A program made the position numbers and the translations under genes. Positions 23,661 to 57,820 of a stretch of DNA of 64,000 bases are shown here, piece after piece. The notes under the pieces were generated by a model that was given only the letters and a program-made list of their open reading frames with translations, had not been told where the DNA came from and made no database searches. How positions within the stretch are numbered: position 1 is the first letter of the stretch; each line of letters starts with the position of its first letter. The stretch is taken from assembly GCA_004431415.1 (NCBI GenBank), contig QPMI01000518.1, forward strand, positions 24,796-88,795. The letters run 5' to 3'. The stretch is from Cyanophora paradoxa CCMP329. Taxonomy: Eukaryota > Plantae > Glaucophyta.

Positions 23661-23984
23661 TAATTTAATACTAAAATACATATTTATCGATTAATTTCTT
23701 TAACTTTTTATGCAAACTTTGTATAAATTAATGCAAACTTTGTATTAAAAATGATAAACGCGTTTAATTTAATGCATATTCACGATTGATTCAATCGATA
23801 TTATATCGATAGATTATGTTCTTTGTCGATTACATATATAACTTCGATTGATTAACATTAAACTACTTAAAGAACGATATAATCGCGATTAATTCGCATA
23901 AATTCGCATAAATTCGCATAAACTCGATATATCTCATCGGTATTGAAGTAGACCACCGCCCATTTTGTATCGGAAAACGCAAAA

Positions 23985-24240: not shown

Positions 24241-24349
24241 ATGTTCTATAAAACAGAATAAATGAATTCAAGTGTGACAGGTAGTATTCAAATGATATTC
24301 AGTAAGAGATATATTTGTTTTTGAGAAAGTCAGTAAGAGGGGTAGAATG

Positions 24350-24797
24350 TCTGTGACGCCTGTGACGGCTGTGACGCCTGTTTTCAGAAGTCTGTCATTT
24401 TTGAAAATTTTAAAAAGTTTGAAAGTAGGTGTCACAGGCGTCACAGGCGTCACACTCAATTAAATTAGGTGTCACAGCGAAATTGCAGACCATTTCCAGT
24501 AAGACAACTTCGCATTTTCGGAAAGGTGGATTAATGGATAGTGTTTTGTAGGTGTCAGAGGTGTCACAAGACGGATTTCAGTAAGACAAGAATATATTTT
24601 TGAATATCTCAGTAAGAGAAAGAGATTCCATTTTTAATTGGGTGTGACGCCTGTGACGGCTGTGACGGCTGTTTTAAGAAGTCTGTCATTTTTGAAAATT
24701 TTAAAAAGTTTGAAAGTAGGCGTCACAGGCGTCACAGGCGTCACAGGCGTCACAGTCAATTAAAGAGGCGTCACAGTCAATTAAATAGGTGTCACAC
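24350..24797. promoter_or_regulatory. Two iteron-like palindromic units: (GTGACGCCT)3, AT-rich spacer, (AGGCGTCAC)3; putative replication origin
   Basis: Units at ~24350-24455 and ~24642-24797, mirrored in the right TIR (~48740-49185), with a fifth copy at ~39840-39945. Origin function is inferred. Confidence 0.6.
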
Positions 24798-24855
24798 CCG
24801 ATTATCTGACCATTTTCAGTAAGACCATCTGAAATTCTGAATTTCTCAGTGTCAA

Positions 24856-25257
24856 CTAACTCGGAAATCGCAATACTCTATGTTTCTCCGATTTCTCCAA
24901 CCCTGAAAACACACCTGTTATTCTCTCATCTATCTCATGAGATACTCTCGTGGTTTTTCTCTCTGCTTCTAATCCACAACTGAATATATCAATCGCCAAC
25001 ATACCTTCATTTGAGTAACAATGAGCAGTGCAATGGCTCTCATCCAGCAGAAGAACCATTGCAAAACCAGGAGGAGAAATACCACCATCGAAAATCTCGC
25101 AATGCTTGTGAACTACTCGAATACCTTGCTCTTGAATAATAGTTTGCAAGAACTGCATTAACCACCTGGTTGTTGTCTCCAAGTCCTCCATTCCTACTGC
25201 TAATTGGGTTCTGAATTTGTAATCCAGCATCACATGGAAGCCTCGATGAGTATTCAT
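24856..25257 (-). CDS. speD: S-adenosylmethionine decarboxylase proenzyme family (short prokaryotic-type, pyruvoyl-dependent)
   Basis: 133 aa with G.H..LD at the N-terminus, PPGF.MVLLLDESHCTAHCY (ESH self-cleavage site) and AIDIFSCG. Confidence 0.85.
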   Translation of the reverse strand: MNTHRGFHVMLDYKFRTQLAVGMEDLETTTRWLMQFLQTIIQEQGIRVVHKHCEIFDGGISPPGFAMVLLLDESHCTAHCYSNEGMLAIDIFSCGLEAERKTTRVSHEIDERITGVFSGLEKSEKHRVLRFPS

Positions 25258-27110: not shown

Positions 27111-28130
27111 TTATGTGATACTTAGAAGTTCACCTGTGAAAAGTGTTCTACTTGAATAACTACCTGTGGAACCTGTGACAAGTGTTACATACTCACCAGC
27201 AGGAACATTGATAATTGCACTGAGAGTAAGAGGTTTGGTTGTGATAGTGGAATTAGCTTCTACTGAAATGTTAACTCCATTGGGTAAAAGATTATTTTTC
27301 AGAAAACTAAGACTTATTGCAGCACTTGTTGTTGAATTGGTATATGCTGTAAATCTATAATCACCTGCAACAAGAGCTGTAAACCTTCCATTAGTAACAT
27401 CGAATGACCCTGTATTATTTATCAAAACGGTTGTCCAATTGATCAGAGCGGCTGCACTTGTAGCAACATGAGTATATCCAAGTTGAACAGAAAATCGTGG
27501 CTGAGAAACATATTTTAAATAGCTTGAATTCAGAGTCAAACGATTGGCTTCCAGTGTTGCAAAAAGATCACTGTTACGTTTTAACAGCAGATTAACATCT
27601 GCTCCTGTATCTATTTCAGGAGTGACCACCTTGGTTGATGCTGTTATTATTGATTCTGTGGAATTGGGAATACTAATTCCAGCATTTGCTGTTACCAATC
27701 CTGTAAATGTGCTTGTTCCTGTTATGCTTACTTGATTGGCTGTAAGGGTTCCATCAATCCTTGCCCCATCTCCAATATAAGCGCCTCCACTTCTTACTAC
27801 AAGAGCTGAGTTATTGATGGTGTTGTCAAAGGTAACAATCTTTGGTGTGGTGAACCCTCCCACATCATCATAAATTGCTGAATCTGATACAATCTGACCT
27901 GATTGAACTTGGTTCTTGTTTGAGACTATTAGACCTGTGGTTCTCACCTTGCCTGCATTTCGATCACATCGAATTTCTTTGCATCTGATCACAGAATGTT
28001 GAGAGAATGAATCGGCTCCTGTGGTCTCTGTGCAAATGAAACCTGGGGTAGCATCTGTTACTGTATGGTTGAGTTGATGCAATTTCGGCGCTGCATAACA
28101 GAAAACAGGAACAGCTATTTGTGTAGACAT
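27111..28130 (-). CDS. Fibre-like protein 2 with C-terminal C1q/TNF-like domain
   Basis: Shared N-terminal domain; Thr/Gly-rich shaft; INNTGSFDVTNGRFTALVAGDYRFT...FTGELL C1q signature. Confidence 0.75.
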   Translation of the reverse strand: MSTQIAVPVFCYAAPKLHQLNHTVTDATPGFICTETTGADSFSQHSVIRCKEIRCDRNAGKVRTTGLIVSNKNQVQSGQIVSDSAIYDDVGGFTTPKIVTFDNTINNSALVVRSGGAYIGDGARIDGTLTANQVSITGTSTFTGLVTANAGISIPNSTESIITASTKVVTPEIDTGADVNLLLKRNSDLFATLEANRLTLNSSYLKYVSQPRFSVQLGYTHVATSAAALINWTTVLINNTGSFDVTNGRFTALVAGDYRFTAYTNSTTSAAISLSFLKNNLLPNGVNISVEANSTITTKPLTLSAIINVPAGEYVTLVTGSTGSYSSRTLFTGELLSIT

Positions 28131-28152
28131 TCTTTATATTATACAAACAATA

Positions 28153-29211
28153 TTATGTAGCACTTACCAGGTAAACCAACAAGATGTGATTGTTTGGAAA
28201 GTCAATACTACCTAACATACAGTAAATTTGAAGACTGTCTCCCATGGTGAGGGTAATAAGAGCTTCGTAGCACATCTGATTCCTGCTTGATTGACTTGCA
28301 TATGAAAGAATCAGATTTGTATTGTTTCCGTTTATTCTTAGTCCAATCTGGGAGGCAGTTGCAGTAATGTCTTCCGTAATTGTAAAATAGACCCTATAAA
28401 CTCCTGAAACAGGGGCTGTAAATGTTGCTGGATACAGTTTGTCAAAATGACCCTCATTATTCACAAGATATGTTCCAACTGGAAAAGAAAGTGTTGGGGT
28501 GCCGGAACTAACACTTGTTCCAAAAATCTGAGCGTTTGCTTGTTGTCCTGAAATACACATTCTTGGGCAATAGCTGCGTTTAAGACCACTGTTTGTTGGA
28601 AATGTGATTGCTTTCAGATCTGTTATTGTCTTTTCGAGAGTGAAAATGATATCTCCGTTTCGTTTATAATTCACATTTGCATCTGTCCCATTATCCATCT
28701 CAGGTGCATTAACTCTTGTAGTAGCTATTCGAGTAACATAGTTAACATCTCCTGAGAGACCACCATTAAAGGTCATCAATCCTGTGAATACACTTGTCCC
28801 ACTCACATTTAATTGGTTTGCTGTAACAGTTCCTGCTACATTTGCTCCATCTCCAATGTAGGCTCCTCCACTCTTGACTACAAGAGCAGAATTATTACTT
28901 GTGTTACCAAAAGTAACTATCTGAGCTGTGGTAAATCCACCCACATTATCATATATTGCTGAATCGGGGACTACTTGACCCGCTTGAACTTGATTTTTAT
29001 TCGAGATAATAATTCCTGTGGTTCTTATCTTGCCTCCATTTCGATCACAACGAATTTCTTTGACTCTAAGTATATTGTTCTCAGTGAAAGAGGTAATGCT
29101 TGTAGTTTCAGTGCATATATTCCCGGGTGTAGAGTCGACTACTTCATGAGAGGTGCTATGGAGTGATTTGGCTGCAAGTTCATAGTTTGGGATTTCTAAA
29201 AGGGAGGTCAT
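28153..29211 (-). CDS. Fibre-like protein 1 with C-terminal C1q/TNF-like domain
   Basis: Probable start MTSLLEIP after TAAAG; paralogous N-terminus; FTAPVSGVYRVYF...LTMGDSLQI C1q signature. Confidence 0.75.
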   Translation of the reverse strand: MTSLLEIPNYELAAKSLHSTSHEVVDSTPGNICTETTSITSFTENNILRVKEIRCDRNGGKIRTTGIIISNKNQVQAGQVVPDSAIYDNVGGFTTAQIVTFGNTSNNSALVVKSGGAYIGDGANVAGTVTANQLNVSGTSVFTGLMTFNGGLSGDVNYVTRIATTRVNAPEMDNGTDANVNYKRNGDIIFTLEKTITDLKAITFPTNSGLKRSYCPRMCISGQQANAQIFGTSVSSGTPTLSFPVGTYLVNNEGHFDKLYPATFTAPVSGVYRVYFTITEDITATASQIGLRINGNNTNLILSYASQSSRNQMCYEALITLTMGDSLQIYCMLGSIDFPNNHILLVYLVSAT

Positions 29212-29230
29212 CTTTATAATTACGAAATAG

Positions 29231-32200
29231 TTAAATTGCGACAGCAATGTAATGAATTGTAACTGGAAATCCTGGTCTGTCAAAAGAACTTAATGGAACT
29301 ATGTCAAGCTCACAAGTGAAATAGCTACTGTAAACTTGTTTAAGCCTAACATACATTCGATAGTAGTAGGCTGTCTCATTGTGTTGTATACCAGTTGTTA
29401 CAATAGGAGGGTTAGCAAAGCTGCTGTTGAAATTAATAGTGAGGTTAAACCTATGGTCAGGATTTGCCCAAAGATAAGGAGTAGTGTAAACATACGTTCC
29501 TGCTTGGATTTTCCCATTAAAATATGCATTGAGTTGACTGGAAAGATCTGCCTCTGTAATACATCGACTGATGGTCGCATTATTTGAGGGGTTCATAGCA
29601 TAGAAATTTCTTGCATAGGCATTTCCACGAACAAGTAAGGTTTTATCAAAGTAATTCTGCGAATTGTGGAAGAACCATGTTTCTTCAAACATAGGTCCTG
29701 CTGGTTCTACAATCTGACCTGATCCTACATACATTGTGTTGTTGGCTCTGATTGTGGTGGCTGTGAAAGGATCGAGGGTGGGTTTATTGGTCAGGTCATT
29801 GTAGTTGCCCGAAAATAAAGCGGGTTTGTTATAGATATCTGTATTCCAATCATGAGTATGTGCAAAATCTGTAATATCTGCTTTGACATGAGTGTGAGCA
29901 AAATCTGTAATCTCACTCTTGACATGAGTGTGTGCAAAATCTGTAATCTCACTCTTGACATGAGTGTGTGCAAAATCTGTAATCTGTGACTTTGTGTGAG
30001 TGTGTGCGAAATCTGTGATTTCAGATTTAAAATGAGTGTGAGCGAAATTCGTAATATCTGCTCTTGTGTGGGTGTGTGCAAAATCTGTTATCTGGGATTT
30101 TGTGTGAGTGTGTGCAAAATCTGTGATCTCTGCTCTTGTGTGGGTATGTGCTCGATTATTCAGATCAAGGAAGCTACCTGAATATGCAACAGGGTGTAGA
30201 TTAGATGGGGTGGGTTTATTAATGAGATCATTATAATCTCCTGTGAAAGATATGATTTTCAGTTCACCCCTTCCAACATAATCAGAAGGGAGGTCAATCT
30301 TAATGGGCATGATAGCTGGATCATCAGGGATCTCATACTCACCTCCTGGGTGAACCACAGGGAATGTTTGATTGCTTTCAGTGTGAACAAAGAAGTTGCA
30401 TGCTGTTACTGTTCCATCAATTACCCCACCTGTGAGAGGGAGGTAATCTCCTGTCACACCAATATTGATACCTGCAATGATTGTATTTAGTTCGGTTTCA
30501 TCTATGTAGTTTTGGGCTTGAAGGTAATCCTCTGTAACCACTCTTGATATAGTTTCATTGTGAATATTTTTTGCAGCCATTCTTTGATTAGCTTCCAGAA
30601 CCCCACCATAATTCGTTTTTATCCATGCAAGTTCTGCCCTTCCATAATTATCATTTGCAGTTCCCACTATGGGAATGTAGGAGTATTTATCTCGACTGAA
30701 AACTATCATTGGTCTTGATCCATCCAGACTGCTCACATCTGCAACATGAACCTGTATAGCTGCATTGTAATTTTGGTAGGTTGCTGGGTCTGTTGGAACT
30801 CTAAAAGTATCTGTGGGTATGTCAACCTCCATGTAGCTTGACACAAAGATATTTGGTATGGTTGCTCCTGGTTCTGGTGGTGGATTATAAGAGCCTGGTA
30901 ATGTTCTAATATGAAGTGGTCCTCTCATAGCTGAATTTGCAAGTGTCCCTTCCACATGAACATAGTGGTGATTCAAAAAGATCCTTTCAGGGACATTGCA
31001 AGTCTGGTAAAGAGAAACTCCCAGAGTAGCAAGAGGCTCTACTTTTGCGAATTCTGGTTGGTCATTGATCTCATCCCAAGTATGTTCATGTTTGCTTGGT
31101 GGGAACTCAGTTGGAATCCCATCAATTTCTCCCCAATCATGCCTGTGATCCTCTGGTGGAAACTTTTCAGGTTTGCCCAAGATCTCATCCCAATCATGAT
31201 TGTGATCCTCTGGTGGAAATCTTGCTGGTTTGTTATTGATCTGCTCCCAATCTGGGAAGAACTCCCAAATCTCTGGGCGAAATCCATCTGGTAATAATTC
31301 TTCATGGGGTTCATATGGTTGCTCATAATCAACAACTGGTGGTTCGAGACCATCTGCTAAATATTCCTCATGGGGTTCATAATTCTGCTCATATTCATAC
31401 TCTTGTGGATCTAAACCATCTGGTAAATACTCTTCCTCATTGGGATCATATTGATCATATTCATACTCTTGTGGGTCGAAACCATCAGGTAGGTATTCCT
31501 CCTCATCTGGAACGAATTGGTATTCGTCAAGCTCCAAAATATCAATTTCAGGAGGTAAATATTGCTCATCAATTTGCTTTCTTGGTTCAATTATAGGTTT
31601 ATTTCGAACCTGCTCCCAACTCACAATGTGTTGACCAAAAGGAACTGTCTCATCTGCTGTGTATTCTCTTCCTGGTTGCTTTTTGGGTGTTAAATCTGGT
31701 GGATCCCATGGTAGTGGGAAGGGAACTGGGACAGGTCCATAATACTCAAAGATCTCTCTTATGGTCTTCTCACTTACAAGTTTCTCTCCATTTGCATAGA
31801 CATTGCTTCCATGGATATTTCGCCATTGTCTGGTTCTAATACCAAGATCTTTGGTGTTTGTCACCAAAGGTAAAAGGTGCCTATCCATTTCGACAAGGTC
31901 TGGGTGTAAATGAACTGTTACTGGTTGAGTGGGGCTACTGTTGACAGTGATAGACGCCTTATTCTTTGCTGTATCACCAGGTAGTTGGAAACCGAATTGC
32001 GCATTAGAAGCCGAATTCGCCACAATATCTCGTGGATAAACATTGTTAGTGAACTCGATTTTGTTGGTTTCTCCATGGGGGCTATCTGTAATATTTCGGG
32101 AATTTGTGCAATTGCATTTGATCCTTCATTATAGATTCTCAAACCACTCTGATGCCCACCCTTCTCATTTTGAACATTGAATATTAACCTACCACTATCG

Positions 32201-32520
32201 AATCGAGTTGGAATATCTGGATGGGTTCCACTGGTTTTCAGTTTTCTTGGTCTGCTCCTGGTTGCTTTAATCTGGGCTACTTGATTCGATTTCACATTCC
32301 CCATGCTGAAAGCAACACTCACATCCTCCTTTTCGGGATCCATTTCGTTTATTGAAAGTGCATGCTCTCTTGGGTGAGTCTTTGAGGGTTCATCTGCACT
32401 GTGATCAATTGAGATTGACCCTCTGGCTGTCAAGTTATCGAAATTCACATGTTTGTTATCTGCCTTCCCTCTTCCTGATGAGGGAATGGTTTGAAGGTTT
32501 GCTGGGTAATTGAAACTCAT
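29231..32520 (-). CDS. Long tail-fibre-like protein (~1090 aa) with His-rich phage fibre repeats and a C-terminal lectin/gp53-like domain; one frameshift at ~32020-32120
   Basis: ORFs 31918-32520 and 29231-32023 overlap in adjacent frames. Repeats include AHTHxKS(E/Q)ITDF x~8, DWxxIxxKPxxFPPxxH x4, EEYLPDG x4 and (S/T)GxYNDLxNKP. C-terminus GKIQAG...INFNSSFANPPIV...HYIAV. Confidence 0.7.
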
Positions 32521-32569
32521 CCCTGTTTACTCTACTTATAGAGATTTATTAAATTTGAGTTAAGTAAAG

Positions 32570-34111
32570 ATGCCCCTTCGTGTAATTCTCTCATTATCAG
32601 GTGGGGGAGCTCGTGGTATAATTATTACGAGATTGTTAAAAGAAATCGAAACTCGAACAGGAAAAAGAGTAATTGACCTTGTTGATCTGGTGAGTGGAAC
32701 ATCCACTGGTGGGATAATTGCGATTGGTCTCAATGTGAAAAATCCCGAATTTCCAAACGAACCTAAACTTACTGCAACCGATTTGCATTCCACTTATCTC
32801 AATCAACTCCCCTTAATCTTTGCAAATCCCAGAAATATTATTGATAATGCACTTTTCAACACCAAGTATGATGTGACCCCATTGGAGACAGCCATTCTCA
32901 CTGTTACTGGTGAGTCTCTCATTCAAGACTCTCTCAAAGATGTAGTGATCACAAGTTTTGACACTGTGAGTATGAAGCCCATTTTTATCACCAATGATAA
33001 CTCCTACAAATCCATCCCCAGCAAGATTGCTGCAAGATCCACCTCTGCTGCTCCAACATATTTCTCACCTGTGAACTATGATGGGATGTCTCTAATTGAT
33101 GGTGCAATCTCAGGTAACAACAATCCCAGTGTCTGTGGTTACAGTCATGCTAAGAAGATCTATGATGATGATGATGATATTATAGTGATAAGTATATCCT
33201 GTGGTGAAGTCAATGAAACAGATGCTCCAAATGTGGGTTACTCTTATGAAGATGTGAACAGCTGGGGCATCCTCTCTTGGATTGCTTCGACCTCTGGAAG
33301 TCCATTAATCAATATGTTGATGGCTGCAAGTGAACTGTCTGCTCTGGAAAAGATGCAAGAGTTTCTCCCATACAATGATGATCAAGGATATGCAAGATAT
33401 TATAGACTCTCTGTTCCACTTCCAAAGACCATAGTAAACTCTTTGGATGATACCTCTAAAATACCAGATATGATAGATGCAACCGAAATATATATAGCAG
33501 CAAACACTGTGATGATTGATAGACTCTGTGATTTACTGGTTGCAAATTACGAAATCAAGAACCCTGCAAGGTTCTATATATCATCCACTCTGAATAACAT
33601 ACCTCCCATTGATGCTAACTGGTATCTTCTATCAGATGGTGCATTCACTGCTTCATCATCAAAAATTGGAAGGGAGGCATTTAAAGCAAGACCTTCCTTG
33701 ACAGGTTGGGAAGCAAATGCATCTGCTCCTGATGGGATATGGAGTGTTCACACTGAGTATCTCCAAGTAACCTTCCCATACATATTTGAGGTTGCATCTA
33801 TAATTGCATATGGTTCTGGTGTAACAAACGCTTTTATTAAGACCTTCAATGTTGCAACATCACAAGATGGTGTTTCCTGGTCATTTATCAAGTATGAAGG
33901 TGTCAACAGAGTGTTTATGTGTGAAACTATTAATAATGCCCACAACAGTGGTGATGTCTCATACAGTTCTGGGTATCCCACCTCTATTAGAGACGTTTTC
34001 TATATTGGCTACCCTCTGAGGACAAGGTATATTCGAATTTATCCACTTGTATACATCAACACCCCAACTATGAGAGTGGATGTCACAGGTGCATTTATTC
34101 GAAGTGTATGA
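32570..34111 (+). CDS. Patatin-like phospholipase fused to a C-terminal F5/8 type C (discoidin) domain
   Basis: GGGARG, GTSTGG, SAAPTYF and DGA catalytic motifs; C-terminal YLQVTF, SQDGVSW, RYIRIYP and MRVDVTG. Confidence 0.9.
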   Translation: MPLRVILSLSGGGARGIIITRLLKEIETRTGKRVIDLVDLVSGTSTGGIIAIGLNVKNPEFPNEPKLTATDLHSTYLNQLPLIFANPRNIIDNALFNTKYDVTPLETAILTVTGESLIQDSLKDVVITSFDTVSMKPIFITNDNSYKSIPSKIAARSTSAAPTYFSPVNYDGMSLIDGAISGNNNPSVCGYSHAKKIYDDDDDIIVISISCGEVNETDAPNVGYSYEDVNSWGILSWIASTSGSPLINMLMAASELSALEKMQEFLPYNDDQGYARYYRLSVPLPKTIVNSLDDTSKIPDMIDATEIYIAANTVMIDRLCDLLVANYEIKNPARFYISSTLNNIPPIDANWYLLSDGAFTASSSKIGREAFKARPSLTGWEANASAPDGIWSVHTEYLQVTFPYIFEVASIIAYGSGVTNAFIKTFNVATSQDGVSWSFIKYEGVNRVFMCETINNAHNSGDVSYSSGYPTSIRDVFYIGYPLRTRYIRIYPLVYINTPTMRVDVTGAFIRSV

Positions 34112-34577: not shown

Positions 34578-35977
34578 CTATTTCCTCTGCCCTCTTCGTA
34601 GATTGAATCGAGTTTGGGGTGCAGTATATGTTTCTTTGGTGGTTGAAAAGTCATTATACCACCTCTGACTGTTGACTTCTGATAATTTCTGGGTTCCTGC
34701 TATGGTCAACTTCTTTAATTCTTTCTCTACTCTACCCTTCTTTTGTGCTCTTGCTTCTGTGAGGGGTTCTTTTGGTATTTCACTTGCTTTTTCTATGCCC
34801 TCCTTTCTGATTGCTGAATCAACCCTGGCTTCCTCCTTTGCCTGTTCAAGAGCATCCACTGTGGGAGTTTCATGATACTCAACACCTTTAATGGGCAGCA
34901 GTTCATGAAAAGCGAATCTACCATCAACTATCTCACCACTGGGACTTCTGATTCTGAACTTGAAGCCCTCTCTGCCCTCCACACTATAAACAATTCGAGA
35001 CCAATTAACCCCTTGCTTTGCAAATGGATTCTTTTCAACTTTCACTCTCACAAACATTCCAGGTTTCAGGGCATCAAGATACTCAATCGATTTCTTGAAT
35101 CTCTGATCCTCCATATTCACTATCTCTTTGTAGTGGGCTTCTGTGGTCTCTGCTGGTTTTCTCTTGGTTGCAGAGTGAATGGTATTATTATAATTATACT
35201 CAATATCACCCAACACATCAAAAAATCGTGCAGTATTATTTGCAATGCAGTAGTTTGTGATCAATCTCTTGATCTGTCTGTTAAAGGCTTCAATTCGACC
35301 TTGGGTTCTGTGATCTGCAACATCACTTAGTTGATGCTCAATGAATTTTGTTCCCAAATAATCTGTGAACAACACATTGGTAAATTCGCTTCCACTGTCA
35401 CTCTGAATGCGAACAATTGGTCTGGGGACTCTCTGTTCAAGTTGCTTGAATGCTGCAAGTGTAGTAAGAGCACTCTTGTCTCTCATTGGAATTATGAACC
35501 CTGTTCTCAGGGTTGACTCCATTGCACTCATAAATGTATCATAACCATCATTCTGCTTTTTGTATGCAGGAAAGAAGAGCAGATCAATCACATAGGTATC
35601 AAGGGTTGCCTTATTGGAATCATGGGATCTCTCTTTCGAGATAGGGTGGGTGCATTAATCTGGACGACCTCCTGCTTATCATACCACTCTCTCATCTTCT
35701 TGTAGTTCTCCTCTGGTAGTTCCTGTCTCATTGCAGTAAATCCCTTGTAGCCTGTCCTGGGATCATAGAACTTCTTAGCAATCTTCGACTCTTTTGGTGC
35801 TGTCTCAGCTGGGAGGGTCTCTGGGATTAATTGCTTGACCATCTCTGATCTTTTCAATATTCGACTGCTCTTCTCCTCCACTGGAACTGTGATGGGCAGG
35901 ATATTCCCTCGATCTTCAATTGCCTCTTTTCTTACAATTCTGGGTGGTTGTCTCAATCCTATTTGTGTAGAAGGCAT
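34578..35977 (-). CDS. Retroviral-type (rve) DDE integrase, Polinton family; one frameshift at ~35610
   Basis: N-terminal FYDPRTGY...EWYDKQEVVQ; catalytic VIDL, QSDSGSEF and GRIEAFNRQIK; YNNTIHSATKRKP. Adding one A in ATAAGG joins the two ORFs (IPIKATLDTYVIDL). Confidence 0.9.
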
Positions 35978-36160
35978 CTTTACCTTATCTCTCATATAAT
36001 AAATGCAAGAGTCTGTGTGGAAGGAGAACACAATTCCAAACTACTTTGCAATTGAGCCCAATGATCCAGGATTAAGATGTATATGGCTGCTGCATTTAAT
36101 TCGCGGTTTATTACTTCTTGGAGAGCGAAACCAAAGAAAAAGAAAGATTGATGAAGTAGA

Positions 36161-39100
36161 TTAGAGCCCAAATGGAATGCTGTGAATTCCATCGTCTAAT
36201 ATCTTCCTTTTGCTATCGAGTTGGTTTAGAGCCACCCTTCTGCTCTCCAAATCATATAGGTTGTGGTCTTGCCTTCGCTTGTTTACTACTGCTACTGTTT
36301 TGGTGATGCCTTCAAACAGGCATCTCTTGAAATCATCAAAGTGAACCTCTTTGGAGGAAGTCCCAGACATCTTTATTTTATCAAAGGTCTCAGTTCTGAA
36401 AGCATAGAGTTTCGATCTCAGACCTACATACTCCACAATCTTTGCATTTGGAAACTCGTTTTTATATTTACCTGGAATCAAACGATTGCTCCTATCAAAG
36501 AGAGGGTGGGTGGGATCATAATTACTGCAATCCAGGTGTCCAGCAATTCGCTTCATCTCATTATTTAGATCATTGGTATGCAGCAGGAGACAGAAAGAAT
36601 CTGTATCATGGAATAGTAGCTCTGCTGTTTCCCAAGTTCTCCTCACCACATCATAAAAGAACCTGCTATTGTGGAGTTTCGCGAAATCCAGCACAAAAGC
36701 ACCAATTGCAACAGGTTTATCTAAGTGAACATGCTTGGAATACATCTCAAAGGCAACAGCATTTTCGTTTAATACATTGGTTGCCTTGATGAGTGGACTT
36801 GCAGCATATTTCTTGCAAAGTTTCTCACTGTTTGCAATCTTTACCACAGAGCGACCCCTGCATGATTCGAGGCATTTACCATAGATTGCATTGTTCATTA
36901 ATTTAAAGAAGTCACTCTCGAATCTGGACATAGATTGGCGCCTCAGTTTCGTATTTAGATCAATATAACTCTTCATGAATGCAGAGGTTGCAAATGAGAG
37001 AACCCTGTGAACCTTCGTGATTATAATACCTTTGCTCACAAGATAGATCAAGAGAGGTTGGGAAATCACATAGTTATTTTTGGGTGAGAATGTTGCAGTG
37101 AGTTTGGGGTCTTTGCTTATCTTCTCACCTGTGATATCCAGTAACTTTCTTTGATACCCACCAGCATTTCGGTGGTGACATGTTCTTTATTAACTACAAG
37201 TGGAAAATCGTAATGATCTGTGAGAGTTTGTGGGTATTCCAGGTCAACTTCAATAAAGGCACTTCGTCCTTGGGTCTCTTTAAGTGCCTCTGAGACATCT
37301 TCCCATCGAAAATCTCCAATGGGCAGTTCTTGACTGAGAGCAAAACCATACAGATTATTTGCATCCAAGAGAACTATATGGTCATCTGGGTTTTCCACCT
37401 TTGCATATCGAGTAGGCATTGTAGCAAACCCACCTCGAATTGCTCTCTCAATGAATTCGTATTGCCCTACATCACTGATCTGCTCGATCTTTGCTCTGGT
37501 ATAAATGAGCATTGCATCCCAGGATAATCCAGGAGCCGAAACATAGTGGGCAGGATCCAATCCATATTGGGAAAACGCCAATTCTCGGAAAGTCTGGAAT
37601 TTACTCATAAGATCACCAGAATCCACTGCCTGGAAGTCCATGAAGTGCGAAGCATCTATGAATTTCCACATGCCCCATTGCAGGGAGAGGTATTGATCGA
37701 AATTCTTGCTCAGGATCTCAACACGAAGTTTATCATCTTGCTGTGCAATTTTGCGGAATATTTCGTGTCCACATTCATCCATGTGATCCACCACAATTGC
37801 TACTTTCGTTTGCTTTGAGATTCTCCTGTGGAGGTTGCAGTTTCGACATGCTTTCCCAATAAATGCTCCTGATTGATGACAATGGTCTCTCACTGGGAAA
37901 TTCTCATGGGTAAATCGTTCAGCACAGATATAACAGTGTTTAGTGATCTTGTATTGTGCTTTCTGCTCTTCTGTGAGTGGGTGCATTGGAATATTGGTGA
38001 ATAGAGTGCGGATTACTTGGGGTCTGATCTCTGTGAGAGTGGTAAACAGAGCACCAAGTGGATCTGATCCCTCGAAATAATGAGAGATCACCTCATCCCC
38101 CATCACAACTGTTAAAGAAACCGATTTGACCGCTCTTTTACTGCGGTTCTCATCAATTGGAACCGAGTGACTATCCATTTTTACATAGCAGATAGTGGGA
38201 AGCCACACAGTTTTGCGAAGGTGTTGAAGCCCAAATGCAATGTGACTTCCAGATTTCGGGCATTTACCTTTGCTCTCCCTCCAATCAATGCAGCGATTGG
38301 CTTCTAAGTGAATGTCCAGCTTCTCCTGAGTTCTGAAACGAGACAGACAGGTCTCACAGTAATAAATGCGACCATCATGGGCTTTATCAAAGGTGGTTTT
38401 CAGAAGTCTACTCAGAGACATGATGGTGATATAATGCCCTCTATCATCCTCTTCGTTTTCGATTAATAAAAGGTTAATCTTGGTCTTTCTCCTGGGGTTG
38501 CTGGATTGATGGAGAGGATAGAAACACTGTGCTTGATTATCTGCACCATAAATGTTGATTGAGAGTTCAGGGTTCTGCTCCTCAAATCGATCAATAACCT
38601 CTGCATCACAGGCAACTGGAAACTGGATGCCTTCGAAATTGAGTTCGTTTAACCATCTTCTATACTGGCTGGGTTCATTGCTCTTGTGTTTATTAATATC
38701 ATTTCGGTGCAGGTAAGCCAAGATTGCATACTTGAAGCAGTCTTGACCATCAATATTCTTAACATTCACAGTTGCTCTCTTTGATCCAATCCACTCAGGT
38801 GTTGAGAAGAAGCAACCACCCACAGGAGCATAAGACATTATTACCACTCTCAGCATCTCAATGCGATCCAGTCTGTAACTGTCAACCTGCATCATCTGTT
38901 CCTGCATAGATTGAAGGGCATTTCGCAGTTCAACATCAATATTTCGTGATCTTGTGATGACAAAGTAATCACTGTAAATGAATTTGGTGATCCACACCCT
39001 TGGATCACTCACTTTGGTGAATTTACAAATGAAGGTCAACCGAGTTTTAATTGCTCTCAGGTCTTGGAGTTTCTGTCTGAGTCTCTGTGGTAGAGTAGTT

Positions 39101-39441
39101 GCAATTCTCTCCAAGAATTCAATCCCATCTTGGATAACCTCCCCTCTTGCTCGATAGGTCAACCAAGAATATGCTTTGTTCATTGCTTCCCCATCTTCAA
39201 TCTCTGGTGCAATCGCTCCCAACCTTAAACCTTCATCCCTGAATTCCTCCATTTTCTCAAAACGATCATACAGTCGATTTGTAATTTCTGTGAGTTGAGA
39301 TAATCTTGGTCTCCTATCCAGGATTGCTGCCTGGCGATCATATTCGAATTCTGTAATATCACCAGTAACTAAAAGGGTTCCTAAAAGACCGAGTATTTCG
39401 TTTTTCTTTTCTTTGATGATTCTATTTGATTGGCGGGGCAT
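36161..39441 (-). CDS. polB: Protein-primed family B DNA polymerase (pPolB) with degenerate exonuclease domain; one frameshift at ~37160
   Basis: DANNLYG, KLMNNAIYGK, HDTDS and GLRSKLY polymerase motifs; RDHCH..G..C..CN zinc module; N-terminal CFKYAIL...GHY protease-like region after VGG. Confidence 0.92.
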
Positions 39442-39689: not shown

Positions 39690-39834
39690 TTTCTGTCTTA
39701 GTCAAGTGAAATACGCAACCATCCCTTAAATCGCCAGTCAATTTTTGTCACAACACAACGATTTTCGATACGTTTTTATATTGTCCGATTAAGAATCGAA
39801 ACAGTCATCGACCCACAGGGGGCGTCTGTGGTTA

Positions 39835-39972
39835 ATTGGGTGTGACGCCTGTGACGCCTGTGACACCTGTTTTCAGAGGTTTGTAGATTTTTGAAATTTT
39901 AAAAAGTTTGAAAGCAGGCGTCACAGGCGTCACAGGCGTCACACTCAATTAAAAAGGTGTCACAGCTGTCAC
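39835..39972. promoter_or_regulatory. Internal copy of the TIR iteron palindrome immediately downstream of the primase-helicase gene
   Basis: gtgacgcctgtgacgcctgtgacacct...aggcgtcacaggcgtcacaggcgtcac, with a spacer similar but not identical to the TIR units. Confidence 0.7.
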
Positions 39973-40041: not shown

Positions 40042-42403
40042 TTACTCATCCCCACCTTCAACATCACTGTCATCCACCAACTTGCGACTATGCTTCTTTT
40101 TGATCCCAAAGTAGCCACGAGCAAGAACACCATTGACTCGCTTTCTCTCAGCCTTCACATTAAAGACTTCGCGAAGTCTCTTCAAGATAGTGCATTCTGT
40201 GATTTTCTCATCAGATTTGCCCATGTGATCTATCTTAAAGTGACTGATAATGGACTCACTTGTGGCGAAATCCCCTTGACTCTTGGTGAGTTCATAACTC
40301 TCACGAATCCATTCTCCAATCTTGTCATTCTCATTGAAATATTCAACACCTTGATCAACAATGGACTGGGGTGGTTTGGTGACGAATTCATTGAGAGAAT
40401 GGGTTCTCCACATTTCCAGGAGAATGGACATATGCGCCATTTTATAATCGTCATCATTCTTCATTAGGCGCATGAGAGTGGTGTCTGCTTTCTTCTCACC
40501 AGGCTGAGGATCGACCTTGAAGACATTTTCGAATCGGTAGTAGATAATTCGCCTTTGAATTGCTGCATCTGGTTTACTGATTCCCAAGTTGTCATTTGTG
40601 GACAAGAACAACTGGAACATGGGAATGAATGTAACAAGATCTTTGAAAAGAGCTCGAACCTTCATCTCATTCCCACCAGTAACCTGTTTGATTTTGTTCA
40701 GTTGAAGCATATCACCATCTTCTGCTTCATTACTGAAAACAATTCGTTTACCAAGAATGCAAGCGAGTTCTGGGGAAGCCTCTGACGAACTCTTCTTGGG
40801 TTTAGTCCAATATGTCATGTCCAGTGACCCATAATACTCACCAAATGTGTCTTTCACCAACTCTTGGAGCAGTGATTTCCCATTTGCTCCAATTCCAGTC
40901 CAGCAAGTGTATCTCTGATTTTCTGTCAAACCACTCAGGGCATAGGCAATTAATCCCATCATAAATTCGCGGTTTTCATCAGATTCGATAATATCTGCAT
41001 AGATGGATTTAATCTTCGCAACTTTCTCTTGGTCAATTTCTGTGGTGTAATCGTAGCCAACAGTCTTACTCACCATATCATCTGGGAGTCCCTGTCGAAA
41101 AGTCATGGAGTTCAGGTCAAACACACCATTTGTAAATCCAATGATGTTGGGAACAGTATCAAGTCTCTCGAAAAAGGTCTTGTCACTGAACAGAACTGAA
41201 AGATCAGACATAAGTGCAGTTCTGTATGTAGTCTGTTTGAGGCTCTTAGCAATTCCAGCAGAATCTTTGACCTTTCCTCCAAGGAATTGCGGTTCTCTTC
41301 ATCACGAAGTGCTCTCTGTGCGAGTTGAACAGAACGTTGAAGATAAACTGGACAGACCTTGCAGCTCAAACAGAGAAAGATTCGCTTCCCAGTTTCATCC
41401 ATCTCCCAAATCCCACATACATCATTGAACTTGAACCAGGTCTTGTTGGAATACTTGTATTTGTCTTGCAGAACAAGATAGGCAACCTGTGCAACATCAT
41501 AATGGGCACCATCAGATCCAGCAGACCGATCAATCAGATTTTCGATCTTCACATCTGTCTCTTCCTTCACACGAACTGTGATGCTTCGCTTTTTGCAGTT
41601 TGCACTGTAACTCGAAACAATATATTTGTCCTTCTCCTTCCCTTGAACAATATACCAATTGTTCGAGTCATGGCTTCCCTTGCAGCAGGGACAGATCAGA
41701 CCTTTGTTCTCAGCAGTGAAATTGTATCCCATCTTGGTCTCATTGATGATTGTGGGCAAGATGAAACCGAATTCTTCGAGTTTAGAAAGAATATGTTTCT
41801 GCAAATTCTCCTCAGCGCACCTTGCATAATAAGAATGTGCACCTTTGGGGAATTCGTAGTTTTCAACAATCCACTTTTGCAACTCAGCAGTGGGTTCATT
41901 TAACTCACACTCAGATGCCCATGGCTCTCTGATCCATGTTTTGTTGGGACTGGGACAAACATTAATTACCCAGCAGTCCCAGTGGATGCAATCGTTTTGC
42001 AGTCGATCTTGGGGTTTCCTTTGAATGCACCTGCTTTATCCCAGATCTTAATGGTGTCGAATTCAGCAGGTCGAGCGAAATAAGCATGATATCCTTTTTT
42101 GGTTTTAGCAAGTGGATTAACACCACCGAAATCATCAGGGAATTGCTCCTCGAATTTGGCGAAATCCTCCTCTTGGTCGAAGTCAATAACCATGATATTA
42201 CGAGCAAGAATGCCCCAAGCAGTATATTTACCGGATTTCAGGGCTTCATCGAATTTATCCCAAGTCCAGGATCCGTCTTTATGAGCGAAAAGCGGTCTCT
42301 TGGTATCAGGATCAACAGGAATTACGAGATTCTCAGACAGGACATCGTCTTCACGAAGCCAGTCAACAAGGCGTTTCAGGGATTTCTTGGCGGCAGCGTT
42401 CAT
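40042..42403 (-). CDS. PrimPol (bifunctional primase-polymerase) + Zn finger + D5-like SF3 helicase; frameshifts at ~41970 and ~41255
   Basis: VIPV...KRP, IMVIDFD and KTKKGYHAYF (AEP motifs); CPCCKGSH; IGFTNGVFDL; WTGIGANGKS Walker A; IKQVTGG and RALF. A single added G in each of two G runs restores one ~790-aa frame. Confidence 0.9.
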
Positions 42404-44892: not shown

Positions 44893-46290
44893 TTACAGAT
44901 TAATGCGACGAAGACCATCTTTGTCAACAATAATGAAACTGTGCATGAGAGCACGAACATTAACTGTGATTGTCTGGTCAGAAGGCATGTATAGAGTAAG
45001 GAAAGAAGAGGAGGAGTTCGTGAGATCAACATAGCCAGACTGGGCAATGTTGCGAATCGCTTTCTCTCCATCAACACAGAATGGTAGACCACTGAGGACA
45101 TATTTGTCTGCAACCTTGTCCATATTTGAGCACTTGAAGGCATCCGCAATTAATTCGGCACCTTTGAGGAGAGGGATGGGCTCAGTAGCATAGAGACGTT
45201 GACCATTAATTTCAACAGTGAAAGTAATGTCTTTTGAGTTAGCATGCGTTTTTAGGACACTGTGGGAACCATTGAAACCATCAATACCTGCGGCATCACG
45301 AACTGAAACAAGAAGACCATAGACAAGACCAGAGATCTGTGACAGGTTAATACGATTTGGTTGAGCATTGCCTTTTGCAGCAAAATTGACACTGTCAACA
45401 AAACCAATATCCAGAGCAGGAATAGCCATACCAGTGGTCTTCACCTTCTCAATGACAGTAGCAAACAGTTCATCAGAAACATTAATAGCATGCATGTAAA
45501 GACGAGGAGAAGTGACTTTAATTTCGGGGGTTGTTCCAGAGATGGTGAAAGTGGTGATCTGTTGACCAACATGGGCAAGAGTAGCATTAGCAGTAGCACC
45601 AAGTCCATCATCCTCTGTCTTATCAGCAGCTGTTCCACCAACAACTGGAAGAGCACGACCACCATAAGAAGTCTCAACATAACCCTTTCCAGCATCCTTG
45701 AACCAGACAGTCACCACCATTTCTCCTGTGAGAGCACCAAGAGGGAGGTAGTGGTTTAGCCATGGGACGGGGATTTCAACAAAGAATGACCCACCAAGTC
45801 GGTTGGTTCCATGGGCAGGGATACCATGAACCATACCCATTGAACGCTTCTTCTTGGCGAGTTGATCCTCACTGTAATAGATAAGAGGGAAATGAGCAAG
45901 GAAATCAGAAGGCACATGGAAAGTGTAAGATCCATAGGTGATTTCAAGTCGAGAGACAAGAGCACCAACTGGGCGAACGTATCCATTGCGAACAAGGTCG
46001 GTATCACCAGCAAAAGTGACAGCTGGAAGGTCAAACGCAAGTTCGAGTTTTCCACAGAAATTGTAGCGAGGGAGCTTGAAAGAAATGCGATTTCCAGCAT
46101 TATTCTCGAAAGTGTTGCTTGGGTTCACAACAACAAGAACTGGCTTCGACTTGGATTCAAGACCAAGCATGAGAGAGTTGTCCAGGAAGAACGCCTTGGC
46201 TTCTTCCGGGTTGTTAGAGCTTCTTTCAGAGAAAGACGTTGGAGGGTCGAAGTAATATCCATGATTATCTCTTTTATTATACTGCAACAT
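44893..46290 (-). CDS. Major capsid protein (double jelly-roll, PLV type); true start may be the ATG at 46262 with a frameshift at ~46208
   Basis: ~460 aa, beta-rich, between penton and ATPase; ISFKLPR...ALVSRLEITYG pattern. The alternative N-terminus MDITSTLQRLSLKEALTT matches LKELLTT of the element 2 MCP. Confidence 0.75.
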   Translation of the reverse strand: MLQYNKRDNHGYYFDPPTSFSERSSNNPEEAKAFFLDNSLMLGLESKSKPVLVVVNPSNTFENNAGNRISFKLPRYNFCGKLELAFDLPAVTFAGDTDLVRNGYVRPVGALVSRLEITYGSYTFHVPSDFLAHFPLIYYSEDQLAKKKRSMGMVHGIPAHGTNRLGGSFFVEIPVPWLNHYLPLGALTGEMVVTVWFKDAGKGYVETSYGGRALPVVGGTAADKTEDDGLGATANATLAHVGQQITTFTISGTTPEIKVTSPRLYMHAINVSDELFATVIEKVKTTGMAIPALDIGFVDSVNFAAKGNAQPNRINLSQISGLVYGLLVSVRDAAGIDGFNGSHSVLKTHANSKDITFTVEINGQRLYATEPIPLLKGAELIADAFKCSNMDKVADKYVLSGLPFCVDGEKAIRNIAQSGYVDLTNSSSSFLTLYMPSDQTITVNVRALMHSFIIVDKDGLRRINL

Positions 46291-48585: not shown

Positions 48586-49969
48586 ACGAGAGTATCTCAT
48601 GAGATAGATGAGAGAATAACAGGTGTGTTTTCAGGGTTGGAGAAATCGGAGAAACATAGAGTATTGCGATTTCCGAGTTAGTTGACACTGAGAAATTCAG
48701 AATTTCAGATGGTCTTACTGAAAATGGTCAGATAATCGGGTGTGACACCTATTTAATTGACTGTGACGCCTCTTTAATTGACTGTGACGCCTGTGACGCC
48801 TGTGACGCCTGTGACGCCTACTTTCAAACTTTTTAAAATTTTCAAAAATGACAGACTTCTTAAAACAGCCGTCACAGCCGTCACAGGCGTCACACCCAAT
48901 TAAAAATGGAATCTCTTTCTCTTACTGAGATATTCAAAAATATATTCTTGTCTTACTGAAATCCGTCTTGTGACACTCTGACACCTACAAAACACTATCC
49001 ATTAATCCACCTTTCCGAAAATGCGAAGTTGTCTTACTGGAAATGGTCTGCAATTTCGCTGTGACACCTAATTTAATTGAGTGTGACGCCTGTGACGCCT
49101 GTGACACCTACTTTCAAACTTTTTAAAATTTTCAAAAATGACAGACTTCTGAAAACAGGCGTCACAGCCGTCACAGGCGTCACAGACATTCTACCCCTCT
49201 TACTGACTTTCTCAAAAACAAATATATCTCTTACTGAATATCATTTGAATACTACCTGTCACACTTGAATTCATTTATTCTGTTTTATAGAACATATGCA
49301 ATCTCATCGATTATTCAATTGGAGACCATGCAACTCTGTGACACTTTTTCGATCAAAAGTATACATCCGCAATCTCATCGATTGTTTAATTGGACATAAT
49401 GCAGTTCCGATATATTCCAATAGAAAATCCGCAATCTAATCGATTGTTTAATTGGAGATAATGCAACTCTGTGACACTTTTTCGGTGCAAAAATGTAAAT
49501 CCGCAATCCCATCGATTGTTTAATTGGACATAATGCAACTCTGTGACAGTTTTTGCGTTTTCCGATACAAAATGGGCGGTGGTCTACTTCAATACCGATG
49601 AGATATATCGAGTTTATGCGAATTTATGCGAATTTATGCGAATTAATCGCGATTATATCGTTCTTTAAGTAGTTTAATGTTAATCAATCGAAGTTATATA
49701 TGTAATCGACAAAGAACATAATCTATCGATATAATATCGATTGAATCAATCGTGAATATGCATTAAATTAAACGCGTTTATCATTTTTAATACAAAGTTT
49801 GCATTAATTTATACAAAGTTTGCATAAAAAGTTAAAGAAATTAATCGATAAATATGTATTTTAGTATTAAATTAACACATATTGAAAAACGAATTTAAAT
49901 CCAGAGTGAATCGAGATCGCGAAGCGATCGAGATGAACGAGGGATTTAAATTCGTTTTTCAATATGTGT
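48586..49969 (-). repeat. Right TIR of element 1 (~1384 bp)
   Basis: Reverse complement of 23566-24951. Confidence 0.95.
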
Positions 49970-50019: not shown

Positions 50020-51347
50020 GCAGCACGCGGAGAAGCTGGGGCGGGACCAGCAGGAGATGTGCGCCGTCGCGCACGGCGTCGCGGATAGCCGCCAGTGGGA
50101 CATGGTGCCCCCGCCCGCCCCCGCCCGCCTCGAGTGCAGCCGCGACCCGACCCGACCGACCCGCGCGGCCCGCCAGATCGTGCAGATGCTCATGATAAAG
50201 CAGCCCGAGTGGATGAGGGTGAGTCGGTGATCACGATACGATAAATTTAAAGCGACCCGGGCCTCCCTCCAGTTATTGTGCGCCGGCCGCGAGCTGAGGG
50301 CCTCGGGCAGGACATCGAGGAGGCGGACCGGCTGACGGGGATGGAGCCGGCCACGTGGGACGACCGCTACAGCATCAACTTCTTCGGGGTGCGGTCGCGC
50401 GCGATCCGCATTGAAGTTTCGGGGCTGTGCGATGCAGTCGCATTCTCCCTCGCGCGCGTCTCGAGCCGGCATGCACGTGCAGGCCCCCGACGACGCCGAG
50501 GAGGCGGAGATCCCCTCCCCCGTCGTCGTTGCGACCCCCAACTCGCGGCCGCGCCGCCCCCTCGGCCCCCAGCCGGCCGCCCGCGTCCTCGCGAGCTACG
50601 GGGCGCCGCCGGCGCCGGCGCGGACGGGGAAGGGGGCGAGGAGGAGGCGCCGGCGACGATGACGGAGGCGGAGTGGAGCGCAATGATCAACGAGCGGATG
50701 AAGAATTCCGTCCTCGCCCTCAGCGTCGTGCGCCGCCCCGCCGGGACGGGCCGTTTGGGCGCCTCCGCGCCGGCTGATGCGCGGGCGCGCCGCGGTGGCA
50801 GCTGGCGGGGGCGAAGGAGGCGGCGGAGAAGGCGCGCGTGAGGTCGCTCACCTGCGAGACGTGCGAGTTCGACAAGCAGCCCGCGCGCAACGCGGCGCGC
50901 CAGAGAGCCATTTTCCCCCCTGCATGTGCATCCTTCAGCCCTCTCCCGTCTGACTGCTACCACTGTACGCTCAGGCGGCGATCGCGAGGCACAAAATGAC
51001 GCCCGCCCACGTGGTGCGCTAGTCGCGGCCGATCCGAACGTCGACTTTCAGCTATAGCTTCTTGAAGCCTTGAATTTCGTTAATATACTATTTTTGCATC
51101 GACTCGAACTGACCCTGGGCGCAGGAGCGGGACCGGTCGTACCGAAAGCTGCTGGCCGACCTCGCCATAATCTGCGAGGATGCCATCGAAGGGTGCGCTG
51201 CGATCGTACACGCGTCCGGCTTGAGTCTCGCATCCCCGTGCAGCCTTGTCGAGCCCCTCGAGCTGTGGATTCGTCGACCCGCACGTGGATTCACACGCGA
51301 GCGCAGGATGCAGGAGACGATAGCGGCGCTGTGCGACCTCGGGGGCC
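50020..51347 (+). CDS. Host TRANK1-like gene, right copy, exons between the two viruses
   Basis: HAEKLGRDQQEM..QWDM, LTCETCEFDKQP and ERDRSYRKLLADLAIICEDA match left-copy exons HGEKLLGDRQEM..QWDM, CDACECKKQP and ERKRLYHKLLLDLASICEDA. Confidence 0.7.
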
Positions 51348-57811: not shown

Positions 57812-57820
57812 CTTTGTAAA

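Follow-up and report, generated by a model that had tools for sequence, protein, structure and literature searches.

Can a Polinton-type protein-primed DNA polymerase (pPolB) lose its proofreading exonuclease and still remain a full-length polymerase? This question is raised by a gene at positions 36161-39441 (minus strand) of a 64,000-nucleotide stretch of the glaucophyte Cyanophora paradoxa CCMP329 (assembly GCA_004431415.1, contig QPMI01000518.1, positions 24,796 to 88,795 of the forward strand), which we refer to as the window. The gene belongs to an integrated virus-like element (element 1), and an earlier note had compared it with the pPolB of a second element in the same window (element 2), here called P0001 (58445-61867, minus strand), an open reading frame (ORF) that has intact exonuclease motifs and ends after motif B. 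We conclude that the gene probably encodes a full-length Polinton-type pPolB that has kept its polymerase, vOTU and zinc motifs, has lost four of five catalytic residues of the exonuclease together with the whole Exo III segment, and is predicted to be a non-proofreading replicase.

Loss of the exonuclease site in a full-length pPolB

We aligned the window protein, read through its frame break with an X at the break, with 269 proteins retrieved by word and profile searches, giving a set of 270 sequences. The DEDDy 3'-5' exonuclease site is made up of Exo I (DxE), Exo II (NxxxD) and Exo III (YxxxD). The six corresponding columns read D,E,N,D,Y,D in 253 of the 270 sequences and K,D,H,-,-,- in the window pPolB, which does not show this site. 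Under YADSE/YADFE of P0001 and the canonical relatives, the Exo I position (residues 419-423; 38173-38187, minus strand like all features of this gene) reads YVKMD, with Asp replaced by Lys and Glu by Asp. The Exo II position (residues 551-560; 37762-37791) reads VDHMDECGHE under WHNGRGFDFH/FHNLKNYDGH and keeps neither the Asn nor the Asp column, and the segment with (S/T)Lx2h and KGxYPYDY...YxxxD (Exo III) is replaced by the short linker FIDASHFMDFQAVDSGDLMSKFQTFRE (27 residues, 594-620; 37582-37662). The stretch from the FIDS aspartate to the LDP motif is 31 residues long, compared with a median of 125 (5-95%: 120-137; n=269), so that about 94 residues are gone. The earlier note had read the same three changes from the comparison with P0001 (YADSE to YVKMD, WHNGRGFDFH to VDHMDECGH, and the shrinkage of the segment with KGIYPYDY and YMMTD to a linker), and all of them are recovered in the alignments with P0001 and canonical relatives and in the columns of the larger set, including the loss of the Exo II aspartate.

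Among the other 17 sequences, 13 show single deviations or are cut, and four, including the window protein, have neither the Exo III columns nor the carboxylate pair of Exo I. The remaining three are P0002 (Q,K,D,-,-,-), P0207 (-,-,G,E,-,-) and P0243 (H,-,G,D,-,-), in which the stretch between FIDS and LDP measures 31, 43 and 49 residues, respectively. All four keep the conserved residues of polymerase motifs A (D, Y), B (K, N, G) and C (D, D) as well as the vOTU Cys and His.

In the window pPolB, motif A reads LLDANNLYG (D693, Y698; 37345-37371), motif B KLMNNAIYGK (36875-36904) and motif C FHDTDSF (36593-36613) in the alignment, in agreement with DxxxLYG, KxxxNSxYG and DTDS. The KxY motif is also kept, and the C terminus aligns with the ends of canonical pPolBs, finishing after the thumb; neither this alignment nor a Pfam scan revealed a fused helicase. 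The vOTU-like cysteine protease domain (38392-38814) retains both catalytic columns of the 270-sequence alignment, Cys235 and His336. It is followed by a C2H2-type zinc finger (38290-38364), whose C362, C365, H378 and C384 are invariant in 58 sequences and which has profile matches to C2H2 fingers in the PDB (best E value, 0.00027). A second zinc module, similar to endonuclease VII/HNH, is inserted between Exo I and Exo II (37828-37938); its match to Pfam PF02945 (E value, 0.0043; 17.4 bits) is below the cut-off of 23.6, and its ligands C503, C506, H520, H522 and C535 are invariant in 58 sequences. The motif columns, the vOTU Cys/His and both zinc modules thus agree with the overall proposal of the earlier note, namely, that the exonuclease site was lost and the polymerase, zinc and protease-like modules were kept.

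The N-terminal D1 domain (residues ∼77-205; 38827-39213) was delineated from structure models and fold matches. Its best PDB fold matches in both models are the little-finger (PAD) domains of Y-family polymerases (Z score, 9.0-9.4; ∼105 aligned residues; root mean square deviation [rmsd], 2.5-2.8), with a Z score of 9.0 and an rmsd of 2.7 over 105 aligned residues for the window model, and there were no terminal proteins among the PDB fold matches listed. By analogy with the structural study of Krupovic et al. 2024 (PMC11161782), we provisionally equate D1 with the terminal protein (TP) domain.

Exonuclease loss is a lineage trait

The window copy of the gene is not one ORF. It consists of two, 37117-39441 (774 amino acids) and 36161-37069 (302 amino acids; its frame stays open as far upstream as 37180). 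A one-base frameshift at approximately 37160-37162, located between motifs A and B, separates the two and is seen as a frame change in the sequence and in the comparison with short-read contigs. The earlier note was correct in stating that the exonuclease changes are in frame and that motifs A, B and C are retained, but it missed this break within the range. One might suspect a decaying pseudogene of a dead insertion, in which the exonuclease changes are part of the decay, the more so as the integrase and primase-helicase genes of element 1 are split too and element 2 of the window shows clear signs of degradation.

Against decay, the same exonuclease state is found in P0002, an uninterrupted protein of 1,083 amino acids that was the nearest relative in the word search (46% identical across 99% of the query region, residues 200-774). 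A profile search of 1.84 billion representatives yielded P0002 as the only close relative, with 2,227 bits compared with 566 bits for the next match, a score inflated by construction since P0002 was one of the three profile rows; the top matches after it were all pPolBs of 785-1385 amino acids. The earlier note had named a scenario that would speak against its proposal, in which relatives are normal and just this copy has decayed; this fails, given that the intact nearest relative shares the changes and that copies differ mostly synonymously.

The latter comparison is based on short-read contigs of the same organism, from sequencing runs of several studies. Inside the gene, 33 of the 47 listed differences between the window and these contigs are synonymous, compared with an expectation of 21% (2,079 of 9,828 single-base changes; binomial p, 7.5e-13), the lists being confined to the best-supported sites (40 in the first, which left 91 further sites aside, and 7 in the second, which left 69 aside). 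Three adjacent changes at 38560-38562, with equal depth and contig counts, jointly exchange Ser for Ser. At 37160, all covering contigs of the runs X1 (2), X4 (1), X6 (1), X2 (2) and X5 (2) carry one extra base that leaves the frame open, i.e., in five of the six DNA runs, X8 having no cover there. Extra bases are also present at 35602 in the integrase gene (most covering contigs) and at 41254 and 41968 in the primase-helicase gene (all covering contigs), so that every ORF break of element 1 is closed in the short-read contigs. In total, five places have one extra base relative to the window (35602, 37160, 39817, 41254 and 41968), and four of these coincide exactly with the ORF breaks in the genes for primase-helicase, pPolB and integrase. 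Such a coincidence points to errors in the assembly consensus and not to genuine decay; if not errors of this kind, the breaks are private to this copy. Moreover, the 1.39-kb terminal inverted repeats (TIRs) of the element are 100% alike. Decay is thus largely refuted and, in our judgment, extremely unlikely. Since P0002 shares the exonuclease state, the differences among copies show a synonymous excess and the frame is open in the short-read contigs, exonuclease loss is a lineage trait and not an artifact of decay of this copy.

Further observations concern other runs and depth. In X17, which we guess to be an RNA run, a contig of 2,261 nucleotides matches 37495-37963 except for 16 differences and extends, beyond the match, into dissimilar GC-rich sequence, possibly representing a truncated copy that adjoins host DNA. 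X17 and X15, likewise a guessed RNA run, contributed only a few contigs, which have no bearing on expression. Summed word depths in the thousands and fragmented contigs hint at many copies, a hint from which we claim nothing, as depth is not copy number.

A probably inactive exonuclease domain retained as a scaffold

The AlphaFold2 model of P0002, built from a 59-row alignment, has a mean predicted local distance difference test (pLDDT) score of 89.5 and a predicted template modeling (pTM) score of 0.82. It aligns with phi29 DNA polymerase (1xhx_A) with a Z score of 19.7 and an rmsd of 3.3 over 486 aligned residues, pairing chain residues 5-575 with model residues 420-1060. For the window protein, the N-terminal 760 residues were modeled (pLDDT, 83.2); residues 412-654 match residues 3-212 of phi29 polymerase (2pyj_B; Z score, 9.6; rmsd, 3.1; 156 aligned), and residues 414-753 match residues 5-313 (1xhx_A; Z score, 10.6). 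The overall phi29-type fold, including the regions that hold TPR1 and TPR2, is matched as a whole, with TPR1, TPR2 and thumb not delineated separately. Residues 414-600 (37642-38202; pLDDT mostly 84-98) therefore correspond by fold match to the exonuclease-domain scaffold without its active site, and the strands and helices that once bore Exo I and Exo II are predicted to fold still. The model of the window protein has a low-confidence loop (606-608) at the place expected for Exo III. Pol alpha and Pol zeta, two eukaryotic family B polymerases, also keep the exonuclease fold as a scaffold after loss of the catalytic carboxylates; they are cellular enzymes primed by RNA or DNA and are unrelated to pPolB at the subfamily level.

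The window model was matched to phi29 polymerase in a second fold comparison. Foldseek with the truncated window model gave no match at an E value of ≤0.001, the best one listed (1.0e-03) being a Y-family little finger, and the sequence searches of the PDB missed phi29 polymerase: P0002 alone gave one chance match (E value, 1.2), and the profile gave only C2H2 fingers and a weak match to Hpy99I.

Conservation between the window protein and P0002 is uneven. Identity is highest in the vOTU domain (57%), followed by the zinc insert (52%), the polymerase domain (48%), the C2H2 finger (46%), the part of the scaffold beyond Exo II (45%) and the TP-like domain (39%). In contrast to the 45-57% of the neighboring domains, the first half of the scaffold (residues 420-482) is only 19% identical and the linker 17%, which argues that the former active-site half is relaxed: judging from these identities, it appears to drift, and the rest appears to be held.

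Could proofreading have been kept in some other way, by a noncanonical site in the scaffold, by the endonuclease VII/HNH-like zinc module, or by a trans-acting exonuclease of the host or of a helper virus? The zinc module has preserved its His/Cys/Asn pattern and is 52% identical to that of P0002, the scaffold half after Exo II is 45% identical, and D423 is still acidic. However, the zinc module is equally present in exonuclease-proficient relatives, with its ligands invariant in 58 sequences, and is thus no replacement. Of the acidic residues at or near the former site (D423, D552, D555, E556 and E560), none is conserved in P0002; no former-site acidic residue is common to both proteins, and the half that contained Exo I is 19% identical. 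We therefore regard proofreading by other means as unlikely and favor the reading that the enzyme has no working editing site; on its sequence, it is likely to copy DNA without proofreading.

Rarity and number of origins

The exonuclease-minus state occurs in four of the 270 Polinton-type pPolBs examined, as two pairs: the window protein with P0002, and P0207 with P0243. The members of the second pair, P0207 (1,061 amino acids; cluster member, P0390) and P0243 (1,051 amino acids), are full-length and 48% alike in the polymerase domain. Both are devoid of the Exo I carboxylates and of most of the Exo III stretch, and their deletion boundaries are unlike those of the window protein and P0002. 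The composition of P0243 is very rich in Ala, Arg and Gly.

Searches of further data sets yielded no additional case. A profile scan of IMG/VR gave 68 loci, of which 41 were examined, the omitted 27 being a series of 10- to 16-kb contigs with 23-25% matches to residues 729-1040; for the alignment, two ORFs of <250 amino acids were dropped and L001 and L003 added, again giving 41 ORFs. None of these 41 is exonuclease-minus: 22 carry all six residues D,E,N,D,Y,D, and the remainder consists of cut ORFs or of short (545-588 amino acids) polymerases similar to those of prokaryotic viruses. A scan of viral contigs with P0002 found no close relative and one canonical locus at 30% identity, and viral contig scans with P0207 and with the superfamily 3 helicase (S3H) piece of element 1 gave zero matches. 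The profile scan of metagenome contigs returned five loci at 24-39% identity, all partial or canonical, with no close relative among them. Finally, a search of shorter proteins with the polymerase domain of P0002 listed 120 matches, all canonical pPolB fragments at 35-43% identity; among them, there was no closer relative and no named mavirus protein.

We then asked how often the state arose. A FastTree phylogeny of 231 rows and 493 polymerase-domain columns, from which 39 rows with <430 residues in that region had been dropped, and an IQ-TREE quick search with 48 rows both recovered the window protein with P0002 (support, 100) and P0207 with P0243 (support, 99) as firm pairs that are not joined to each other. 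Forcing all four together is not rejected (delta lnL, 30.6; p-AU, 0.271; IQ-TREE LG+G4 fast search, approximately unbiased [AU] test), and the deletion boundaries differ between the pairs. Exonuclease loss in full-length pPolBs has thus either one or two origins. In both trees, which included no mavirus sequences, the window pPolB sits among canonical proteins.

Relation to known exonuclease-less polymerases

Loss of the exonuclease domain of pPolB has been described as going with the gain of a helicase, in mavirus and in the fusions of pPolB with a superfamily 1 helicase (pPolB-S1H) of Polinton-like viruses (PLVs) (PMC11161782); PLV and transpoviron pPolB-S1H proteins are among those without the domain (PMC11161782). 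Exonuclease loss beside a helicase is therefore already in print for related viruses, and the general theme is known. What is new here is that the protein is full-length, that the exonuclease scaffold is kept, and that the neighboring gene encodes a primase-helicase composed of an archaeo-eukaryotic primase (AEP) and an S3H. The literature searched, with the supplements of PMC11161782 and PMC13215967 (which possibly list relatives) outside that scope, contained no account of a full-length Polinton-type pPolB with an inactivated but retained exonuclease domain.

The closest published parallel is mavirus, and the window pPolB could be a plain member of the described mavirus-type exonuclease-less clade (TP-vOTU-PALM; pMVRE group 1). 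Both polymerases are of the protein-primed type, with a TP domain (TP-like in the window pPolB), a vOTU domain and a proofreading domain that is not, or probably not, functional, and both come from integrating elements with TIRs that also encode an S3H (DUF5906) helicase and an rve integrase, a putative one in element 1 (PMC11161782, PMC13215967). DUF5906 is described as specific to the pPolB group that contains mavirus, and pMVRE group 1 is characterized by the same gene set, i.e., exonuclease-less pPolB, rve integrase and DUF5906 S3H (Wei et al. 2026, PMC13215967). However, the mavirus pPolB has 617 amino acids, compared with ∼1,090 for the window pPolB (1083-1093 for it and P0002), which keeps a scaffold of ∼190 residues (414-600), the zinc insert and the C2H2 finger; the half-length and mostly absent exonuclease domain typical of mavirus-type pPolBs are not found in it. 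The helicase of element 1 also differs in carrying an AEP primase domain. In a BFVD fold search, the mavirus polymerase ranked 42nd (E value, 5.4e-12; 9% identity), behind bidnavirus- and adintovirus-type polymerases (E values, 6e-56 to 4e-41). In addition, fragments of canonical Polinton pPolBs share 35-43% identity with the polymerase domain, which groups with canonical proteins in the trees described above. Judged by these features, simple membership in the mavirus clade is very unlikely.

The pPolB-S1H fusions with Tlr1-like helicases of PLVs and transpovirons (PMC5499653, PMC11161782) resemble the system described here in combining a Polinton-derived pPolB that lost its exonuclease with a helicase in the replication module. 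They differ in that they have no exonuclease domain and carry a superfamily 1 helicase at the C terminus, whereas the window pPolB is unfused and its helicase is a separate S3H. By contrast, the canonical Polinton/adintovirus pPolBs (P0001 of element 2, P0003, P0004 and P0007) share the domain order and length class of the window pPolB at 27-37% identity. The vOTU Cys/His, C2H2 finger, endonuclease VII-like zinc insert and motifs A and B are common to all, and the complete ones also have motif C, which P0001 does not reach; D,E,N,D,Y,D and an Exo III stretch of 120-137 residues are found in the canonical proteins and not in the window pPolB. With its vOTU catalytic Cys and His and with such polymerases as its nearest relatives, the window pPolB is of the Polinton/adintovirus type, which is in line with our reading of the gene.

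The replication genes of element 1 and a possible mode of replication

Element 1 (23566-49969) is 26.4 kb long, has a GC content of ∼40% within DNA of 75-82% GC, and was delimited by composition, TIRs and direct repeats. On the minus strand, its gene order is primase-helicase (42403-40042), pPolB (39441-36161) and putative rve integrase (36031-34578). The primase-helicase, here in three ORFs, has an AEP primase-D5_N-S3H (DUF5906) architecture according to Pfam (Prim-Pol, D5_N and DUF5906). DUF5906 (PF19263) is found in ORF 40042-41211 with 33.4 bits, above the cut-off of 27.6, so that a separate S3H gene lies beside pPolB; 38 relatives of 823-1216 amino acids have the architecture AEP-PriCT-D5_N-DUF5906. 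The adjacent AEP-S3H gene fits the published pairing of exonuclease loss and helicase (PMC11161782).

For Polinton pPolB, it has been proposed that the TP domain primes synthesis and that the vOTU domain releases it (PMC11161782). Following this proposal, the N-terminal TP-like domain would prime synthesis at the element ends, the vOTU domain would then cut it off, and the polymerase would elongate without 3'-5' editing. The dead exonuclease scaffold may be kept for a structural role, and the S3H helicase would supply unwinding, which would make the loss of the exonuclease tolerable. In phi29 polymerase, mutations in the exonuclease site impair strand displacement, which would give a rationale for the helicase. 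Low fidelity and compensation by the helicase may accordingly be expected of this system.

An alternative is a division of labor, in which the AEP-S3H, perhaps with a host or helper-virus polymerase, copies most of the genome and pPolB serves just for priming or repair of the ends at the TIRs or palindromes, where proofreading would be dispensable or harmful. Element 1 encodes both proteins, and AEP-S3H and pPolB have been listed as alternative replication proteins in PLVs (PMC11161782). Furthermore, each end of the element has an imperfect palindrome of 95 nucleotides with a folding free energy (dG) of -33.1 kcal/mol as DNA (z, -12.3). On the other hand, the whole polymerase domain is 48% identical to P0002 and the alignment with phi29 polymerase is full-length, which fits a processive replicase. 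A division of labor seems rather unlikely to us, and a role of pPolB as non-proofreading replicase remains our preferred reading. The link that the earlier note had drawn between this polymerase and the extension of mismatched hairpins is speculation, and nothing ties the 95-nucleotide palindrome to pPolB.

Several points weigh against a maintained, non-proofreading replicase. The window copy of pPolB is itself frame-broken, and the pPolB stretch is absent from the runs on record as RNA, an absence that is uninformative on expression. The differences that show the synonymous excess are linked and, as stated above, confined to the best-supported sites. The fold comparison gave aligned ranges and no residue-level superposition, and D423 is still acidic, with D552, D555, E556 and E560 near the Exo II position, so that an unconventional acidic site is formally possible. 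The Pfam model PF03175 scores below threshold on the N-terminal piece of pPolB (22.7 bits versus a cut-off of 25.8) and does not match the C-terminal piece, P0002 carrying a precomputed PF03175 annotation. Finally, the pairing with the helicase is known from one genomic context, element 1.

Other features of element 1 and the window

The window is a mosaic in composition, with DNA of 75-82% GC around two AT-richer blocks at ∼23.5-50 kb (∼40% GC) and 51.3-62.4 kb (∼48% GC). Flanks so rich in GC point to a protist or an alga as the host and away from animals and crop plants. The first block corresponds to element 1, whose TIRs of ∼1.39 kb (23566-24951 and 48586-49969) consist of three blocks and are 100% complementary. 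A 6-bp direct repeat, CGGTCC, is present at both outer edges of the element, as expected from insertion by an rve-type integrase. TIRs and a 6-bp target-site duplication are the hallmarks of a Polinton/Maverick-like element, and both are found here. The palindromes mentioned above are the outermost 95 nucleotides of each TIR (23566-23660 and 49875-49969), with 46-nucleotide arms that are 85% complementary; such ends are unusual for an element expected to use protein-primed replication.

The integrase gene (34578-36031, minus strand), here in two ORFs, was assigned by a Pfam rve match below the cut-off (E value, 0.0027; 18.3 bits versus 32.6) and by the 6-bp target duplication. ORF 44893-46290 (minus strand) is a lead from the ESM Atlas for a probable double jelly-roll capsid protein: its feature score to viral clusters is 0.98, and 12-30% of the members of these clusters have Capsid_N or Capsid_NCLDV domains; the ORF has zero Pfam matches. 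No packaging ATPase or protease was identified among the genes of element 1.

The cargo region (27111-34111) encodes proteins with cell-surface or lipid-directed domains. These are two C1q-domain proteins (27111-28130 and 28153-29283), a 930-amino-acid protein (29231-32023) with weak, below-cut-off matches to H-type lectin and phage tail repeats, and a fusion of a patatin-like phospholipase with a discoidin (F5/8 type C) domain (32570-34111). The region that separates the genes for pPolB and primase-helicase contains a block of ∼120 nucleotides (39830-39955) with abundant GTGACGCC-type repeats, which recurs with 79-89% similarity twice per TIR (24352-24464, 24631-24746, 48791-48904 and 49072-49195) and may be a shared promoter or origin element.

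Element 2 (51342-62425) is ∼11 kb long and has terminal repeats of ∼430 nucleotides that are 97-100% alike. A KxY-like piece of its pPolB is found in a separate small ORF (57891-58202), and the remainder is fragmented into short ORFs, giving the appearance of a degraded element. The GC-rich flank at 16177-18236 contains an inverted duplication with two near-identical ORFs of 439 amino acids (16177-17496, minus strand; 16917-18236, plus strand), which need not be genes, since at such a GC content ORFs are open in all frames.

Implications for the evolution of protein-primed polymerases

The published proposal linking the loss of proofreading to the acquisition of a helicase is based on mavirus and the pPolB-S1H fusions, both of them highly derived. 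The window pPolB is full-length and otherwise canonical, has a helicase of a different type (AEP-S3H), and is near enough to its proofreading relatives for the proposal to be tested on matched enzymes; one can measure fidelity, strand displacement in the presence and absence of the helicase, and what the dead domain contributes structurally. For annotation, it follows that frame breaks in long-read assemblies of such elements can be spurious and that a pPolB call alone does not imply proofreading.

More tentatively, the window pPolB may be a living intermediate on the way from proofreading Polinton pPolBs to the stripped-down polymerases of mavirus and PLVs, in which the active site was the first to be lost, a portion of the domain was deleted, the scaffold stayed, and the helicase had already been acquired. 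The same road would have been taken at least twice, by the window protein with P0002 and by P0207 with P0243. We consider this scenario possible, if on balance doubtful; if it is true, exonuclease loss together with helicase gain would be a recurrent rule in the evolution of small eukaryotic DNA viruses.

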